Positions 18,974 to 27,592 of a stretch of 64,000 nucleotides of DNA are shown here, in pieces. Both the position numbers and the translations under genes were made by a program. Below the pieces are notes generated by a model. It made no database searches. It was not told the DNA's origin and worked only from the letters and a program-made list of their open reading frames with translations. The DNA is from Escherichia phage BF15: sequence record MW822007.1, one strand, 5' to 3'. Position 1 is the first letter of the stretch, and each line of letters opens with the position of its first letter.

Positions 18974-21067
18974 TTATCCTTGAACGAACTTGTAAGGCAT
19001 GTTTGCAATATCTATGCAAGATGCAATAATTCCAAGAGATGATTCTACTTTTTGTTTAACATTTGATGAAACAAATGATGCAAAGTCAACTCTGTCTTCT
19101 ATTTCAATATCACCTGTCATTGCAACTACTTCGCCGGTTTCCATTAGACGGTCACCGTCATAAATTACTGATTCGGTGAGTTCTTCCGTAGTCATAACTT
19201 CAGCTTGAATGAGTTTTGTATTATTAGATGTTGTTCCGTCATTATTAGAAGCATCAGTTATTTTATTAACTTTGACCATCAATCCGCGTGGTAGAATAAC
19301 TTCAGCTTCTGTTGCTATTCCGAGACTTCCTGGATATACAACATTAACTTTATGAGCTCCATCAATTGCCCATCCTATTTGAACTTTAACGTATTCAGGA
19401 TTTTCTTTATACGCTCTTATTTCGTTTGGATTAATAGTTATTCCTTCTTCATTTTTATCAACTGTCAATTCATTACGAGCTTCTGGTTCTAAAAGACCAA
19501 TACCAGCATGTGTAATTCCAAAACGTCCAAAAATGATAGGAGTTAAAGAAGTAGATACAAAATTTCTGAAATAGAACACTTTATTTTTAACTAGTGCTTC
19601 GTATATAGGAGCAGTCATGCTTTGAGCACGATAAACTGTAATGCCTTCTGGTATACGGTCACCATTTTCAAAAGCTGAATCTAAATTATTTATCGCAGAT
19701 TCAATTTCTTTTTCACTCATTACATCATATCGTTCTGGATTGTAGCGGCCTAAAAGAAGATTATTGATGTCAGTATATCCTGATCCACAATACTCTCTAA
19801 TGCCGCGCTTTTGCGATGGAGTATATTTAGAACCATCACGGGCAATAGTAATATCAATCATTGGACCTGCACCAATTCCAGAAAAGCTATAAATCATTCG
19901 TTTGAGGAATTTAGTTTTTGCTGCGTTCCAGGAATTTTTAGTTATTTCTTCCCAGACTTCATCTGGCTGCCCTTTACGAGTTTTATTATGTTTATCAAGC
20001 CAATTATCTTTATATTCTTCAAAGAATTTATTAACAGCTGCTGCGTATTTCTCTAAACATTTTATTGAAGTAGTTGGTTCATTTTTGATCGCGTTAAAAA
20101 TTACATCTTTAATTTTTTCAGAAACTTCATCAACCTCACTTTTTGGAAAGAATTTATAGTCATAGTGAAGTTCATCTGCGGTTCCTTCGGCAATGATTTT
20201 TGCTGCCTTAGTTTTAGAAGCTAATGAATTAATTCCAAGCTTCATTTCTTCTGCTTCGGGAATTAAAGGAGCAGTAGCAGGTTTATTGAAATTAGCTGCA
20301 GTAGATTCATACTTCTGGAATAATTCGCTTTCAAATCTAGAAGATTCTAATGATTGACTTTGCGCAATTGCTCTACGGGAAATTTTAACTTTAACAATAA
20401 CAGCTTGGTCAGAACGTTTATCGTTTTCTTGCGCAATAGATGCTGCAATTGCCTCATTTTTAGTTACTTGAGCTCCAGTATCTTTATTGATATAAACATC
20501 GCCGACTTTCGATTCAACTTTAGTAAAGAGCTCGGTACTAATTTCTGGAACTCCTGGAATGTCTTCTAATGATACATTTTTGCGATGTATAAGAATATAT
20601 GCATACTTTTTATCGTAATCCCAGAGTTCCTTAAGAAGGACGTATCTGCCACCTGAACGACTACGGATAAGTCTATCAGCAATAACTTGAATTTGTCGAG
20701 CTTGACCAGCAGTTTTAGACTTAAGAATACGAAGCATGCAGGCATCAATTTTATACTGACGCATCGTTTGCATCGCAACAGTAAAAACTGAATTGATATA
20801 ATTAATTGGGCTTGGACCGAGACCTTTTAATTTAGCAATTGAACCTTTAGCAGTTAATGTAAAAGGAACAATATGCATCATTTTATCGCCCATTTTTAAA
20901 TCACGGTTAGTATCACCTCCAGATGTATAGGTACATAAACGAAAGCCTGGTTGTTCAATTGCGTCATCGACATGAACTGAAAAAATTTGTGGTATTTTCT
21001 TCTTTGGATTTAAGTTTGTAATCGGAAGAGTAGTATCTTCGTCAAATAATTCTGTAATAAGTTCCAT
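18974..21067 (-). CDS. alt: Alt, virion-packaged RNA polymerase ADP-ribosyltransferase
   Basis: About 697 aa from the second Met; ART motifs YRAQ / FVSTS / TEAEVILPRG; late promoter upstream. Confidence 0.85.
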   Translation of the reverse strand: MELITELFDEDTTLPITNLNPKKKIPQIFSVHVDDAIEQPGFRLCTYTSGGDTNRDLKMGDKMMHIVPFTLTAKGSIAKLKGLGPSPINYINSVFTVAMQTMRQYKIDACMLRILKSKTAGQARQIQVIADRLIRSRSGGRYVLLKELWDYDKKYAYILIHRKNVSLEDIPGVPEISTELFTKVESKVGDVYINKDTGAQVTKNEAIAASIAQENDKRSDQAVIVKVKISRRAIAQSQSLESSRFESELFQKYESTAANFNKPATAPLIPEAEEMKLGINSLASKTKAAKIIAEGTADELHYDYKFFPKSEVDEVSEKIKDVIFNAIKNEPTTSIKCLEKYAAAVNKFFEEYKDNWLDKHNKTRKGQPDEVWEEITKNSWNAAKTKFLKRMIYSFSGIGAGPMIDITIARDGSKYTPSQKRGIREYCGSGYTDINNLLLGRYNPERYDVMSEKEIESAINNLDSAFENGDRIPEGITVYRAQSMTAPIYEALVKNKVFYFRNFVSTSLTPIIFGRFGITHAGIGLLEPEARNELTVDKNEEGITINPNEIRAYKENPEYVKVQIGWAIDGAHKVNVVYPGSLGIATEAEVILPRGLMVKVNKITDASNNDGTTSNNTKLIQAEVMTTEELTESVIYDGDRLMETGEVVAMTGDIEIEDRVDFASFVSSNVKQKVESSLGIIASCIDIANMPYKFVQG

Positions 21068-21090
21068 CATATCCTCTCTAGTGTTTATTC

Positions 21091-21308: not shown

Positions 21309-22765
21309 AAACCAGTTACCTCATGAAAATCACCAAATACATCCTCAAATGTATTAGCTTTAGTTTTATCTTCACGTAAACGAATCGCAATCGGAAGAAA
21401 TAATTTAACGTAATCAGTGCGGCCATCAGATTTTAACCAACCATTGCATTCGCACTCTAGAATTTTTCCAATATAATAATTTTGGTTTTCCATAATGCGA
21501 GTACGGTCAAGTTCATGTGATTTTACGCCAGCTTTATCTTTTAAGCCTGAACCTGCATTTACTTTAATTTTTCCACACTCTGATTCAAGAATAAATCCAC
21601 CCGCTTTAGTAGGGTCTTTACGGTGAGGATAAATTCCTACAATTTTTAAATCAACATCAATTACTTCTTTAAATTTATAAAGATTTTTTGAACGAGCATT
21701 TTCCCACAATCCATCGATATTTTTGAGAATAATACCTTCAAGACCTTGGTCAATATACTTTTTATAAATTACCTTAGCTTCATCTAGGTTATTTACTACC
21801 TGGTTTTCAATTAAAATTACTTTATCATATCCTGATGTCATTTGTTCTAGTTTAGAAAAACGTACATCATATTTTAAACGAAACGCCGGAAGACCGTATA
21901 TTTCTACCAACGGAACATAATCCCAGACCTGAAACTTCATGCATTTGGCTTCTTTTTCTGAAATAGTTCCCTTTAAAGATTTATTGGCGATTCCATTAGA
22001 AGCAGTACGAGATTCAGCTACTTCGGCAAACTCTTTAGCTTTACTATTTTCAGGAGCATCAAAAAGAAAATCTAGGCCTTCTGGTTCCTTTTCAACTTGC
22101 TCATGGTATACCAATTCGCCATCGATTAACACGCCTTCTGGATGAATCTGGCGGGCTTCAGCAGTCATTTTGATTAACTCTTCCTTAAGAAGATCTAATC
22201 CTAGGTATTCATTGCCAGCTCGTGATAAAAGACGAACATCATCTAATTCATCACCTCTGACTTCAGCAAAACACCGAGCTCCATCTGCTTTTAACTGCGC
22301 AAAAGCTGGAAACTTGATATTCTTACTAATGCCTTTTTCATCATAAGAACTTGCCAGCATTTGAGGTTGTTCAGGAATTAAACCTGGCCAAACTTTGTTT
22401 GCAATAGATACTGAAGCACCGCATTCAAGGTCTCGCATCATAACTCGACGCAAAACTTCAACATCATCCTTTTTACCATCGGTGATATATCCAGTTAATT
22501 CCTCAATTGCTGCATTGCCAGTTAATTTCCGAGTAGCTAACGTAAATTCAATAAAGTCAAGCATATCGGTAATAGTCAGCATTCCAAAACTCTGGGTAGC
22601 AATACCAGGTTTAGGCCATTTCTTGATATAATACTGTAACCCACGAGAATAAGTCAGACGATATACTCGTTTAAGCAATTCATTATTTTTATTCTTTTCA
22701 AGAATTGCTTGCTTCTGTTTAGTTGATCCAATAGATGCTATTTCATTCAGAATTTTAAGAATCAT
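21305..22765 (-). CDS. 30: ATP-dependent DNA ligase gp30
   Basis: 486 aa; adenylation motif KADGAR; T4 DNA ligase-like throughout. Confidence 0.95.
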   Translation of the reverse strand: MILKILNEIASIGSTKQKQAILEKNKNNELLKRVYRLTYSRGLQYYIKKWPKPGIATQSFGMLTITDMLDFIEFTLATRKLTGNAAIEELTGYITDGKKDDVEVLRRVMMRDLECGASVSIANKVWPGLIPEQPQMLASSYDEKGISKNIKFPAFAQLKADGARCFAEVRGDELDDVRLLSRAGNEYLGLDLLKEELIKMTAEARQIHPEGVLIDGELVYHEQVEKEPEGLDFLFDAPENSKAKEFAEVAESRTASNGIANKSLKGTISEKEAKCMKFQVWDYVPLVEIYGLPAFRLKYDVRFSKLEQMTSGYDKVILIENQVVNNLDEAKVIYKKYIDQGLEGIILKNIDGLWENARSKNLYKFKEVIDVDLKIVGIYPHRKDPTKAGGFILESECGKIKVNAGSGLKDKAGVKSHELDRTRIMENQNYYIGKILECECNGWLKSDGRTDYVKLFLPIAIRLREDKTKANTFEDVFGDFHEVTGL

Positions 22766-23031
22766 TGTTCATCCTTCAGAGTTTGATTTACATCTCTATT
22801 ATAAATCAATTCATCATTAAGCTCAGGCAAAGACTTATGATATGTCGTTCTAACTTTATTTCCTTGCATCCAGTGCTTGACGTAAATGAAACCTTGCTCT
22901 ACACATTTTTTAAAAATTCGTTCGTCTTTTTGAGCACGGAATTCTGGATTGCATCTAAAAAATTGATTTACGTGACCGTAATCACGTGTAGTATTACCTT
23001 CATTTTCATAAATAGTATGAACAACAAACAT
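22762..23031 (-). CDS. hypothetical protein (30.1 position)
   Basis: 89-aa ORF, stop/start overlaps with neighbours. Confidence 0.5.
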   Translation of the reverse strand: MFVVHTIYENEGNTTRDYGHVNQFFRCNPEFRAQKDERIFKKCVEQGFIYVKHWMQGNKVRTTYHKSLPELNDELIYNRDVNQTLKDEQ

Positions 23032-23870
23032 TAGAATGCTCCTTGAAAAATATTATCACCACTAGTAGGTCTATTATACAAATACTCTATGCCACCAGGT
23101 TTAATATAGTTCCATGTCTGAAACGGATGTGTCTGATATGGATGATATAGATGATTATAAGGATTAAATCCAGGCGTTCTCCAGGTAGTGTTCCAAGGAA
23201 AAGAATCGTTTTTAACCATCTTCTCAATTAAATCTTTTATAGCTTTTTCACTATCAAAACTTTCTTTATTTTCCTTCGGCGAAAAAAGCTTATTTTCTAC
23301 ATCATTCCATGTATAAACTCGCTGCGCAGTTTTTGGAATATTATCACGCTCCCCTCGAGCCATCCAATAAACAGGAACATTTAATATTTCACTCGCATGA
23401 TCGCAGTGATGAGCGAGATCGTCAATATAACAAATTACGTTATATTTCTCTTTTGCCTTTTTGAACAGCTCTTCTTTTGAAGAATCATGACCACACATCA
23501 TTACTTCCGAGAAAGCACCAGGAAAAAGAGCATTCAAATTAAATTGACGATTCAATAAAGCGTCAATAGAATCACCCAATGCTGTAACAGCAACAAAATT
23601 ATAATCTTCTTTTAATTTGTTAATTACACACAGGGCATCTTTATACGGAGACAAGTAACGAATAAAATCTGAACGATTGTATTTTTCAATTAACTTGACG
23701 CCAAGTTCTTCGTCACAATTAAAGAGTTTACCTGGAGAAATAAATTTCTCATCTTGGATCATTTTTAAAATATGTTCTAACGGAAGATTATATTTCTGAG
23801 CAAAATAAGGAAGGCCTGATTGCCAGCTTAAACATACTCCATCAATATCAGTCAAAATAGTTGGTTTCAT
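23031..23870 (-). CDS. HAD-superfamily-like phosphatase (30.2 position)
   Basis: 279 aa; N-terminal LTDIDGV motif resembles HAD motif I (DxDG). Confidence 0.5.
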   Translation of the reverse strand: MKPTILTDIDGVCLSWQSGLPYFAQKYNLPLEHILKMIQDEKFISPGKLFNCDEELGVKLIEKYNRSDFIRYLSPYKDALCVINKLKEDYNFVAVTALGDSIDALLNRQFNLNALFPGAFSEVMMCGHDSSKEELFKKAKEKYNVICYIDDLAHHCDHASEILNVPVYWMARGERDNIPKTAQRVYTWNDVENKLFSPKENKESFDSEKAIKDLIEKMVKNDSFPWNTTWRTPGFNPYNHLYHPYQTHPFQTWNYIKPGGIEYLYNRPTSGDNIFQGAF

Positions 23871-24331
23871 AGAGAGTCTCTTAATAGGTTTAACACATCA
23901 ATAAATTCAGCTTCGGTTAGTATTGTATCATCTTTTGTTAGACCACTAGCCATGCTGTGCTTCAAAACTTTTCCTTTCGAGGCTTGTAATGCATCACGAA
24001 AACCCCTGTTTTGGATCGCTGCTTCAAAATATGCATTTGTGTATAATTCTTTCCATGCTTCGGAATATCTTGAAAACGGAGTTCCAAGCCAGAACAACGT
24101 GCCACGGTCCTGAGCTCTTGCATAAGCTCGTCCAGCTTTTTGCGCGTCCAACCCGGACATCCCAAATATACGTCTTTGCTGTTCAACATTTTTCACCTTA
24201 CATCCTTGGAGGAATCCTTCTAGACCTCCAAATTGAATACCATCCATAACGAAAGGCCATTGGGCGAAATTGCTTAATGCACATGATGGCCATTTAAAAT
24301 TGCTTCTAATCTCTAACTCAGACATTTTCAA
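23867..24331 (-). CDS. NADAR/YbiA-like (DUF1768-like) protein (30.3 position)
   Basis: 154 aa; segment ALSNFAQWPFVMDGIQFGGLEGFLQGCK resembles the YbiA core DFSNFAAWPIKVDGKTWPTSEHYFQAQK. Confidence 0.5.
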   Translation of the reverse strand: MKMSELEIRSNFKWPSCALSNFAQWPFVMDGIQFGGLEGFLQGCKVKNVEQQRRIFGMSGLDAQKAGRAYARAQDRGTLFWLGTPFSRYSEAWKELYTNAYFEAAIQNRGFRDALQASKGKVLKHSMASGLTKDDTILTEAEFIDVLNLLRDSL

Positions 24332-24524
24332 TACTTATAATTTCAACATCAGCCCAATGACCATAGCAAGGAAGACGAAATTCAACTGGCCAGTTAGGGT
24401 CCTTTTCTAATATAATAGACTGAACTTGTGACTCTTCATATTCATCGGTATACGGACCTTTATACGTTACTTTATATGTGACCTTAATGTACTGAATTCC
24501 AAAAATCTTATTAATTATATTCAT
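24318..24524 (-). CDS. hypothetical protein
   Basis: 68-aa ORF in the 30.x cluster. Confidence 0.4.
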   Translation of the reverse strand: MNIINKIFGIQYIKVTYKVTYKGPYTDEYEESQVQSIILEKDPNWPVEFRLPCYGHWADVEIISIENV

Positions 24525-24718
24525 ACTAATTCCTTTAATCCGTAAATAGGAGATAATTCATCACCCATACGAAGGTCTTCATTTCCATCTACCCAGGAAA
24601 CAATATAAGCCTCTTTTATTTGAATACCACTCCATTTAAATGGAGATAGAACCTTAGAAATTAATCCAGGTATACCAACTCCCTTTAATTCAACAGTTTG
24701 ACCTAAAAAGAATTTCAT
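24521..24718 (-). CDS. hypothetical protein
   Basis: 65-aa ORF in the 30.x cluster. Confidence 0.4.
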   Translation of the reverse strand: MKFFLGQTVELKGVGIPGLISKVLSPFKWSGIQIKEAYIVSWVDGNEDLRMGDELSPIYGLKELV

Positions 24719-25005
24719 TAGAACCTCATCTGAAAACCGTGCGATTTAACATTACCACCACCAATGTCAGAAATATTAATTTCACGCGCAATTGAAGGGT
24801 CAATGTCAATTTCACGATTGAGTTTAACGATAGCTAAAGTATCGCGCCCATTTACACTACGGAACTCTAAGGGGCAGACTACATTAACGTAGTTTTTAAT
24901 CGATTCACTGGTAGGTTGCAAATGAGCAGGAAGGCCTTTAGGCGCCTTTGAGAAAACCACTTCACAGAAATTTTTACGGGTATCAAAATAAGTAGTCATA
25001 AACAT
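24718..25005 (-). CDS. hypothetical protein
   Basis: Likely start at the internal Met (MFMTTYFD) preceded by GAGGA RBS; the longer track ORF would span a GC hairpin. Confidence 0.45.
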   Translation of the reverse strand: MFMTTYFDTRKNFCEVVFSKAPKGLPAHLQPTSESIKNYVNVVCPLEFRSVNGRDTLAIVKLNREIDIDPSIAREINISDIGGGNVKSHGFQMRF

Positions 25006-25045
25006 AGTATTTTCCTCAGTAAGGGGCCGAAGCCCCTGTTTTATT

Positions 25046-25411
25046 TTAAATATCAAATTCGTTAAGAACTACATCAAAGATTGCTTTAAGATGCTCAGGT
25101 TTAGCTCTGTTACTCAGAATATGACGAATCCAAGTTTTAACCAGAAGCTTACGATTGACGCCATTCCAGCAAGGATGAGTACCTAAATCACGTTGACGGA
25201 AATCATCATCTAATGCGATTTTAAAAGAAGAACCTTCTTTCGTGATTGAAACCGTGATGCCATTTTCAAATCGCATATAAACGTAGTTAGGAGTCATATA
25301 CTGTTCAATTTCACATACTGATCCATTTTGATGTTTCCAAAGGCAGATAGTATCAATAGAACCTGCAATACCGTTAGAAACATATTTACGTTCAAAGTTA
25401 ATGTAGTTCAT
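25046..25411 (-). CDS. hypothetical protein
   Basis: 121-aa ORF downstream of an early promoter. Confidence 0.5.
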   Translation of the reverse strand: MNYINFERKYVSNGIAGSIDTICLWKHQNGSVCEIEQYMTPNYVYMRFENGITVSITKEGSSFKIALDDDFRQRDLGTHPCWNGVNRKLLVKTWIRHILSNRAKPEHLKAIFDVVLNEFDI

Positions 25412-25437
25412 TTTTATTCTCCGAGATATTTAATTGC

Positions 25438-25477
25438 GGTACAGGTATATAATATCATATCCTGTACCAAAGTAAAC
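25438..25477 (-). promoter_or_regulatory. early promoter with 8-bp inverted repeat flanking the -10 element
   Basis: Minus strand GTTTAC-17 nt-TATTAT; GGTACAGG (25438-25445) and CCTGTACC (25461-25468) bracket the -10 region. Confidence 0.5.
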
Positions 25478-25479
25478 AA

Positions 25480-25812
25480 TTATTTTACTACTTTCCAATG
25501 TTGCATGTCAAGTTTACCAACTTTTTTCATCTTCTCAATTAAGCGTTCGGCACGCTGGCGAGCTGTAACATAATACCATTCACCTAATTCATTTTGTTCA
25601 ATTTTTCCAACGATTACTGTATTCAATTCATAAATCCAACCAGTAAAGAAATTATGAACTTGGATTGTAAAGGTGAAATCTGTTCCCATACCTTCTGTTG
25701 TTTCTACTTCAATAATATCACCTTCAACTGCCATTAAGAACCACATAGTTTCGTTATATTCACCATTGAAGCATTTAGTTTTAACTGTGGCGTTCAGATT
25801 AATCGTTTTCAT
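25480..25812 (-). CDS. hypothetical protein
   Basis: 110-aa ORF with upstream early promoter. Confidence 0.5.
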   Translation of the reverse strand: MKTINLNATVKTKCFNGEYNETMWFLMAVEGDIIEVETTEGMGTDFTFTIQVHNFFTGWIYELNTVIVGKIEQNELGEWYYVTARQRAERLIEKMKKVGKLDMQHWKVVK

Positions 25813-25839
25813 TTTATTCTCCTTTGTTTGTGTAAGATA

Positions 25840-25869
25840 ATACTATCACAAAGGAACTATACTGTAAAC
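25840..25869 (-). promoter_or_regulatory. early promoter
   Basis: Minus strand GTTTAC followed at about 18 nt by TAGTAT. Confidence 0.4.
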
Positions 25870-25888
25870 AACTTTATGCAATCTTTGG

Positions 25889-25917
25889 AAAATAAAAAAG
25901 GACTCCCGAAGGAGTCC
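25889..25917 (-). terminator. rho-independent terminator
   Basis: GGACTCC-TTCG-GGAGTCC hairpin on the minus strand followed by TTTTTTATTTT. Confidence 0.6.
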
Positions 25918-25922
25918 TCAAC

Positions 25923-26096
25923 TTATGCTTTCTGCTTACCAAAACGAGAAGCATCATCTCGAAGAACCGCACGTGCTCGGCGCATGATCTTCTCAACAGT
26001 TTGATTGATACGAGAGTTCGACCCACGCTTGTAACCAGCGCGTTTAGAATCACCAACTTTCTTTTCAACTGCTTTCTTTGCTTTAGCTTGTTTTGC
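25923..26096 (-). CDS. small highly basic protein
   Basis: About 58 aa from MAKQAKAKKAVEKK…; Lys/Arg-rich; start site uncertain (the track offers a longer form to 26141). Confidence 0.4.
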   Translation of the reverse strand, partial: AKQAKAKKAVEKKVGDSKRAGYKRGSNSRINQTVEKIMRRARAVLRDDASRFGKQKA

Positions 26097-26495
26097 CATT
26101 ATAAATTCTCTTTTAAATGAAAATGCAGGACTTATTGGCATTGCCTGCGAAAGCCCTCAAGGGGTACTTAGGTTTTGAATATTTACCGACAGGATAACCA
26201 TAAACCCGTCATCATACCTTATAGCTCTTATCTGTTGCACACCGTTAGCTTAAAGGTTCCGGGTTCGATTTCTCGAGGATAAGATATATACTGATGGATA
26301 TATAGGCCTTGAGGCGTACTCCCAATTGGCCATCACCTCGGGGTAGCATGCACTTGCCGCTATAAGAATAACATTCAAGAGGTACACCATAAAACTGCCG
26401 GGGTCTTAAAACTATAATGATTCGCAAATCATTAATCAGACAGTTCGATGGCTCCTCGATTTTAGCTCACACTAAGGCAGTGAATCTCCAATAAA

Positions 26496-26744
26496 TTACT
26501 TCAGTGTTACCACAAAGTGACGAACTGCTTTTCGTGCAGCAGAAGCCAGAGGCTTAGCATACTTAAGTTCATCTTTTTCCTGAAGCTCAGCAGCTAATGC
26601 AGTTTGAGCAGGATTCAGATGTTTGAAATAACGCAGGATTTCAAGAGCTTCGGCTTCAACATCAATAGATGCGCCATAGTTTTCGTGACCATTATTCCAT
26701 GCGTTTCGTTGCAGTTCAAGAGCGTGTTGTAATTGTTTAATCAT
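26496..26744 (-). CDS. rIII: rIII lysis inhibition accessory protein
   Basis: 82 aa, same length and position as T4 rIII upstream of gene 31. Confidence 0.75.
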   Translation of the reverse strand: MIKQLQHALELQRNAWNNGHENYGASIDVEAEALEILRYFKHLNPAQTALAAELQEKDELKYAKPLASAARKAVRHFVVTLK

Positions 26745-26883
26745 TTAAAAATTCTCGTTAGAGATTAAAACTCGGTAGTCACGTTCTTCTGAATTTCATC
26801 TTCTTTCGACAGATCTCTCAGTTGTAGACTACCACATAGAATTGTTCGGTTAACTTATTATTCCGACACCCAATTCATATTAT

Positions 26884-26891
26884 TATTTATA
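26884..26891 (-). promoter_or_regulatory. candidate late promoter TATAAATA (minus) downstream of gene 31
   Basis: Forward TATTTATA just past the gene 31 stop; about 140 nt upstream of rIII. Confidence 0.3.
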
Positions 26892-27227
26892 TCACTTATA
26901 AAGACACGGAATAGCTTTATAGTGACAGGTAACGAATTTTTGTTTAATTTCTTTTGGCTGCTTAAGACCCAGAGCTACAAAAGGATGCGGAACGTTTCGA
27001 ATTTGACCAACTGGAAGAGAAGTCAAATCACCAACTTCGCAGAAACCTTCAGGAACATCAGGACCAACAGAGTGAACTACACACAGTTCAGGAACTTCAC
27101 CTTGAACACGTTTACCGATAATGAGTCCTGATTCTGTAACTTCTTCATCACCGGCTTGTGCAGGTTCAGAAACTAAAATAACATATTCACCGACAGCACG
27201 AATTGGTAGCTGTTGTACTTCAGACAT
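26892..27227 (-). CDS. 31: gp31 co-chaperonin (GroES analog)
   Basis: 111 aa, same length and position as T4 gp31. Confidence 0.9.
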
Positions 27228-27257
27228 CGTTTTTCCTTTTTGTTAACAGATGAATTA

Positions 27258-27282
27258 ATAATAACAAATAATTCTTAAAGCA
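27258..27282 (-). promoter_or_regulatory. MotA-dependent middle promoter for gene 31
   Basis: Minus strand MotA box TGCTTTA, 12-nt spacer, -10 TATTAT, about 30 nt upstream of the gene 31 ATG. Confidence 0.5.
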
Positions 27283-27283
27283 T

Positions 27284-27592
27284 TTATTTACCAATAAATT
27301 GAAGCAAATGCTCAACTTTCATGCCATTAACGGAAATCAATTTGTCAATAGAAAAACCTCGCCATGCACCAAGCTCAACATCAAATACTGGAATCATATC
27401 AGTAGATTCTTTACGAGTAGATTCAGTCAATTTACCGGTTTGCATGGTTGGCATAAAGTCTGCATCACGAGTACCTTTCATAGTACGAATAGTACCATCA
27501 GACTTTTCAAAAACTACGTTTGAAATACCCATGGACAATTTAGTTTTCAAAATTTCACGAATTGCTACTTTTTGTTCAGTCGTCAGTTTCAT
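27284..27592 (-). CDS. hypothetical protein (31.1 position)
   Basis: 102-aa ORF. Confidence 0.5.
   Translation of the reverse strand: MKLTTEQKVAIREILKTKLSMGISNVVFEKSDGTIRTMKGTRDADFMPTMQTGKLTESTRKESTDMIPVFDVELGAWRGFSIDKLISVNGMKVEHLLQFIGK

Follow-up and report, generated by a model that had tools for sequence, protein, structure and literature searches.

A T4 adfN ortholog in a T4-like Escherichia phage, predicted to encode a NADAR enzyme that counters DarTG1

The minus-strand gene at 23867..24325 (stop codon included) of the window, by which we mean the whole 64,000-nucleotide stretch of phage DNA analysed here, was found on sequence grounds to be an ortholog of T4 adfN (gene 30.3), encoding a stand-alone enzyme of the NADAR fold. 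The evidence as a whole was best explained, with high confidence, by a 152-aa protein, translated from an ATG, that would act as a DNA ADP-ribosylglycohydrolase of the NADAR superfamily and would counter DarTG1 by removing ADP-ribose from guanine in the phage DNA. What was established for the gene in the window is its orthology, the NADAR fold, the conservation of the catalytic residues and the intactness of the C-terminus; the enzymatic activity, the guanine specificity, and the necessity and sufficiency against DarTG1 were taken from the literature on the T4 protein, activity and protection having been shown for the T4 and T2 proteins only. The gene is an already known one, present here as a new isolate's copy of a characterised counter-defence gene, and this copy of adfN added nothing new on mechanism.

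The 30.3 product was identical to T4 gp30.3 at 143 of 152 positions (94%), in an ungapped alignment over the full length and with an identical C-terminus. It matched the Pfam family PF08010 (Phage_30_3, 'Bacteriophage protein GP30.3') with E = 4e-68 and 228 bits, the gathering cut-off being 36 bits, and the match covered profile positions 1-138 of 138; PHROG 652, a family of unknown function, was matched as well. T4 AdfN and the allele here shared the same length, the same genomic slot and the same Pfam family, with E36, K43, H123 and the C-terminal helix identical, and differed by nine substitutions (R11K, L56M, A60D, Q63K, S67A, V82T, P89E, K107R and I125M), none of which fell on a known functional residue. 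The gene order 30.4-30.3-30.2-30.1-ligase was the same as in T4, and the same-strand neighbours comprised an Alt-like ADP-ribosyltransferase, an ATP-dependent DNA ligase, a DUF3045 protein (30.1), the 279-aa product of 30.2, a 30.4-like ORF and more small ORFs. The phage was assigned to the T4-like coliphages (Tequatrovirus). Megablast of positions 22700-24600 returned 681 phage records, nearly all from T4-like phages of Escherichia and Shigella, the top match being vB_EcoM_JE01 (98.3%), where 30.3 is labelled 'hypothetical protein'.

The original prediction had described a 154-aa ORF at 23867-24331. This minus-strand ORF, running from a TTG at 24331 to 23867, is real and carries the core quoted at the time, ALSNFAQWPFVMDGIQFGGLEGFLQGCK, exactly, but translation almost certainly begins at the ATG at 24325 and yields 152 aa. 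The two additional codons, TTG AAA (24326..24331, minus strand), arose from the mechanical ORF call, and they probably lie outside the translated part. The ATG was preferred because T4 30.3 is annotated with 459 nt, because the homologs, which like the T4 annotation begin at an ATG, open with MSELEIR, and because the 8-nt overlap with 30.4 is reproduced. In the T4 annotation (NC_000866), 30.3 encodes 152 aa and shares 8 nt with 30.4 and 4 nt with 30.2; with the ATG at 24325, the same layout was found in the window, where the stop codon of 30.3 and the start codon of 30.2 share the tetranucleotide ATGA.

The motifs of the NADAR superfamily were located along the minus strand. The N-terminal signature L17-S-N-F20, which HHalign paired with the YbiA motif FSNF, was encoded at 24266..24277, and its S18 and N19 were invariant in alignment A4, which takes in YbiA. 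The catalytic motif E36-G-F-L-Q40-G-C-K43 occupied 24197..24220, with the E36 codon at 24218-24220 and the K43 codon at 24197-24199; both residues were invariant in A1, which represents nine diverse 30.3 homologs and where they appear as E38 and K45 in TTG numbering, and mutation of either one in T4 AdfN impairs function (PMC11825919). H123 (23957..23959), which stands in the last strand within L-K-H-S, did not vary in A1 or A4 and was nearly invariant in A3, and the pattern L-x-H-[ST] was found in nine of ten further phage loci (L003-L012). This His, at a position where YbiA-type NADARs carry Glu and DarT1-associated NADARs carry Asp, is a hallmark of the gp30.3/AdfN-T4 clade (PMC11125620; PMC11825919 also names a clade signature).

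The C-terminal alpha-helix, about residues 138-152 (23870..23914, minus strand), was intact, and the predicted model placed a helix at residues 140-153 (TTG numbering), corresponding to the last ~14 residues of the 30.3 product. This helix is needed for AdfN function (PMC11825919). The only DarTG1-sensitive phage in the published work was RB69, a related T-even phage, whose sensitivity comes from a 1-nt insertion in 30.3 that drops the last 15 residues (PMC11825919), with the result that the helix is missing from the frameshifted product; whereas RB69 offers a natural loss of function in the same gene and at the same locus, the allele here is full length. Many alleles gave a tblastn match that stopped at residue 144, which raised the suspicion of a truncation like that of RB69; this was rejected, as the Mosigvirus Shf125875 allele proved to have 152 aa and an identical C-terminus.

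The relationship of the 30.3 product to the NADAR proteins was visible solely at the level of profile-profile comparison and fold. An HMM search against NADAR/DUF1768 had been proposed as a check in the original prediction, and the direct result was negative: Pfam PF08719 (NADAR/DUF1768) gave no match to the 30.3 product even at E<=1, which is, read literally, the lack of a significant profile hit that had been named as speaking against a NADAR assignment. NCBIfam and PADLOC searches with the product gave no match, and phmmer of PDB sequences returned a single match, a spurious one to N-WASP (E 1.3). A word-indexed homolog search recovered just 22 close relatives, and an exhaustive search with the A1 profile recovered 1,462 cluster representatives at E<=1e-3, multidomain proteins being numerous among them. 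All 44 sampled family members matched PF08010; six of these also matched PF08719 at E<=0.001, under its gathering cut-off, and relatives in the gp30.3 family scored at most 27 bits against PF08719, for which the cut-off is 35.1. Precomputed Pfam labels assigned both PF08010 and PF08719 to some relatives of YbiA.

HHalign comparison of 159 gp30.3-family domains with 107 YbiA-family proteins yielded a probability of 97.6% and E = 3.4e-12 over 109 columns. The alignment paired L17-S-N-F20 with FSNF of YbiA, E36-G-F-L-Q40-x-x-K43 with S-E-H-Y-F-Q-A-Q-K, and L-K-H123-S with V-E-H-T. The NADAR/YbiA-like reading that had been offered from the letters was borne out by this homology, by the NADAR fold, by the conserved catalytic residues and by the published experiments on the T4 ortholog. 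In metagenomic proteins (P0123-P0269), the PF08010 NADAR domain was fused to BspA-type LRRs, GDSL lipase, ASCH and NT5C, and further fusion partners were prolipoprotein diacylglyceryl transferase and UPF0227/alpha-beta hydrolase, along with tandem NADAR copies. The family therefore extends well past the T4-like phages.

Identity between the 30.3 product and E. coli YbiA (PF08719) was only about 20-25%. YbiA, a housekeeping N-glycosidase, uses a catalytic Glu and gives no protection against DarT1 (PMC11125620). A nucleotide salvage activity had been the second option of the original prediction, and the 30.3 product might in that case be a YbiA-type housekeeping N-glycosidase acting on riboflavin-pathway intermediates or in nucleotide salvage. 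We consider such a role very improbable, as the clade has His instead of the YbiA-type catalytic Glu, published trees put the clade beside the DarT1-associated NADARs and not in the YbiA group, and the DarTG1 phenotype has already been demonstrated.

That phenotype was described by Johannesman et al. [quoted passage not shown] T4 AdfN is a DNA ADP-ribosylglycohydrolase specific for guanine, and it is both necessary and sufficient for T-even phages to resist DarTG1 (PMC11825919, PMC11125620). Deletion of adfN in T4 or T2 abolished plaquing on DarTG1 hosts, RB69 was fully rescued by ectopic adfN-T4, and adfN was without effect on the thymidine-targeting DarTG2 (PMC11825919). In an independent study, T4 gp30.3 hydrolysed guanosine-ADPr in vitro (Toxins 2024, PMC11125620). 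From its 94% identity to T4 AdfN, we infer that the allele here would behave likewise, as a guanine-ADPr DNA glycohydrolase that protects from DarTG1. A counter-measure against an ADP-ribosylating defence toxin had been suggested from the letters, and this suggestion matched the published DarTG1 experiments on the T4 ortholog.

In the proposed mechanism, adfN would be expressed from the tightly packed block of 30.x genes. In a DarTG1 host, guanines of the phage DNA would be ADP-ribosylated by the toxin DarT1, by which replication would be blocked; AdfN would then cleave the N-glycosidic bond that joins ADP-ribose to guanine, restoring the base and freeing ADP-ribose, and after this repair phage replication would go on. 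By restoring both the base and replication, AdfN would thus be an 'orphan antitoxin' mimicking the host's own DarG1. No DarT toxin gene was found beside 30.3, which is flanked by 30.4 and 30.2, and PADLOC gave no match; the gene is therefore an orphan. Its product would act like DarG1 though it is not a member of a toxin-antitoxin pair. The two also differ in that DarG1 (the DarT1-associated NADAR antitoxin, e.g. the Geobacter lovleyi NADAR, PDB 8bat) has Asp in the last strand where the 30.3 product has His, and DarG1 has an N-terminal extension whereas gp30.3 is without one (PMC11825919). Furthermore, T4 AdfN was unable to substitute for DarG1 in uninfected cells.

DarT1 was not neutralised by T4 AdfN in uninfected E. 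coli, and non-T-even phages were only partly rescued (PMC11125620); the rescue of T5 and Bas25 by AdfN-T4 was weak (PMC11825919). From the failure in uninfected cells and the weak rescue of T5 and Bas25, the authors postulated a potentiating factor of T-even phages (PMC11825919). Given these limits outside T-even infection, a picture in which the enzyme alone suffices leaves something out, and AdfN may naturally act on a broader or different set of substrates. The lack of antitoxin activity of T4 AdfN in uninfected cells would be in keeping with an enzyme that acts mainly on soluble ADP-ribose derivatives, such as immune signals or RNA-repair by-products, with the anti-DarT1 effect being secondary; the fusion of the family to very diverse domains (e.g. 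LRR, GDSL lipase, ASCH, NT5C and LGT) points the same way. However, de-ADP-ribosylation of DNA in vitro was shown directly, as was a clear DarTG1 phenotype that depends on the catalytic residues, and the gp30.3 clade is not known to have a soluble substrate, so that we judge a mainly soluble substrate to be distinctly unlikely. With removal of ADP-ribose from DNA guanine as the preferred function, the phage is predicted, unlike RB69, to plate on DarTG1-carrying E. coli, and an intact copy of adfN would be of use for host-range prediction and for the choice of therapy phages.

The presence of an Alt-like ADP-ribosyltransferase gene on the same strand (18974..21070), about 2.8 kb downstream, could suggest that the enzyme reverses or tunes the ADP-ribosylation for which the phage's Alt, ModA and ModB transferases are responsible. 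We give this reading next to no credence, as the adjacency to alt reflects conserved T4 gene order, every tested NADAR was specific for guanine-ADPr, and NADARs are not known to act on the substrates of the phage's transferases. The Alt-like protein has 698 aa; T4 alt, with 2049 nt, encodes 682 aa.

Gene 30.2 (23031..23870, minus strand), whose 279-aa product was 97% identical to T4 gp30.2, had originally been placed upstream of 30.3; relative to transcription, it lies downstream, with its start overlapping the 30.3 stop in ATGA. The N-terminal DxDG-type motif ascribed to it was correct, D8-I-D10-G11 being present and invariant in 25 homologs. Sequence and predicted model together identified gp30.2 as a phosphatase of the HAD fold in which each of the four motifs is conserved. 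Among the 25 homologs, D8, D10 and G11 (motif I), K132 (motif III) and D150-D151 (motif IV) were invariant, and T96 (motif II) was conserved in at least 90%. The model showed a Rossmannoid HAD fold with a cap, with pLDDT >90 across residues 1-190; the predicted phosphatase domain spans aa 1 to about 195 and is followed by a poorly conserved C-terminal tail of ~80 aa that was predicted to be disordered. Searches of gp30.2 against Pfam, NCBIfam and PADLOC gave no match to a curated family model at E<=1, the match to a PHROG polynucleotide-kinase family was weak (E 0.002), and a literature search on gp30.2 found nothing relevant. The tail (23031..23270, minus strand) was aromatic- and proline-rich (…FPWNTTWRTPGFNPYNHLYHPYQTHPFQTWNYIKPGGIEYLYNRPT…), with pLDDT <50. 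It was missing or replaced in many homologs, and a short GIEYL-x-x-QPT-like motif recurred in several genera.

Genes 30.3 and 30.2 are translationally coupled by the ATGA overlap, and the original prediction had viewed their products as a two-step nucleotide-processing pair. Among the 12 genomes examined, 30.2 directly adjoined 30.3 in four (this window, T4, Mosigvirus Shf125875 and Acinetobacter phage W16) and lay within about 1 kb of it in two (RB43 and Yersinia phage MHG19). The other half (Marfa, COW86c, Krischvirus MIZ5, Moonvirus KM16, Rhizobium N34 and Ochrobactrum ORM_20) had no 30.2 homolog within 3-4 kb of the 30.3-type NADAR, and 30.3 abuts the ligase gene directly in Krischvirus MIZ5. 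Each of the two genes was present in about 1,450-1,500 phage records, and their host distributions ran parallel, as is the case for any two widespread T4-like genes. The gp30.3-type NADARs P0133 and P0139 were fused to an NT5C (HAD 5'-nucleotidase) domain, and the motif I region of P0133, VFVDMDNVLVDFQSGL, resembled that of gp30.2, ILTDIDGVCLSWQSGL. We rejected these fused HAD domains as homologs of gp30.2: HHalign was marginal for P0133 (E 6.4e-5, probability 64%) and gave no match for P0139, and the gp30.2 HMM returned nothing from 169 family proteins at E<=10, the fusion proteins included. A two-step pair of 30.2 and 30.3 is therefore possible yet unsupported.

A more specific role was weighed, in which gp30.2, as a divergent NT5C-like HAD phosphatase, would be the T-even potentiating factor that AdfN-T4 needs to be fully active, or would process the ADP-ribose-derived product within one pathway with AdfN. 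The ATGA overlap, the adjacency of the genes from E. coli to Acinetobacter T4-like phages, the NT5C fusions and the likeness to P0133 may speak for such a role, as may the full activity of AdfN-T4 only during T-even infection, whereas the six genomes lacking a nearby 30.2, the wide occurrence of both genes and the failure of the HMM to find the fusions may speak against it; on balance we think it rather unlikely. In Klebsiella phage Marfa (L005, 4001..4453) and Erwinia phage COW86c (L008, 3001..3450), the gp30.3-type NADAR gene was located within a tRNA gene cluster and not by the ligase gene, and it has therefore moved between hypervariable regions.

An out-of-frame ORF of 75 aa, corresponding to T4 30.3', lies inside 30.3 at 23962..24189 (minus strand). 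The T4 annotation describes it as an internal translation in a different frame, and it is open in the window. Identity to T4 was 71% for 30.3' and 94% for the overlapping 30.3. The substitutions relative to T4 within 23962..24189 were divided into 16 synonymous and 13 non-synonymous in the frame of 30.3, and into 5 and 24 in that of 30.3', a split that therefore indicated selection on 30.3 and not on 30.3'. This pattern speaks against independent constraint on 30.3', which may not be a real overlapping gene and whose coding status is doubtful. The nucleotide differences from T4 in 30.3 numbered 35, with 29 in the central 228 nt (12.7%) and 6 in the other 231 nt (2.6%), and this clustering may reflect mosaic recombination or a local relaxation of constraint.

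A sigma-70 promoter scan of positions 22700-27400 gave 17 sites where 15.7 were expected, which is at chance level, and no conclusion on transcription units was therefore drawn from the scan. A strong terminator-like hairpin (25898..25919, minus strand), with a 9-bp stem, five G-C pairs and a T-run, lies directly downstream of a 72-aa minus-strand ORF (25923..26141). A sigma-70-like promoter (25482..25511, minus strand; TTGACA-18-TAAAAT, matching 11 of 12 positions and near consensus) lies upstream of a 121-aa ORF (25046..25411). The hairpin and this promoter may delimit a transcription unit that holds 30.3, the overall promoter count being at chance. By position and length, the 121-aa ORF corresponds to T4 30.7.
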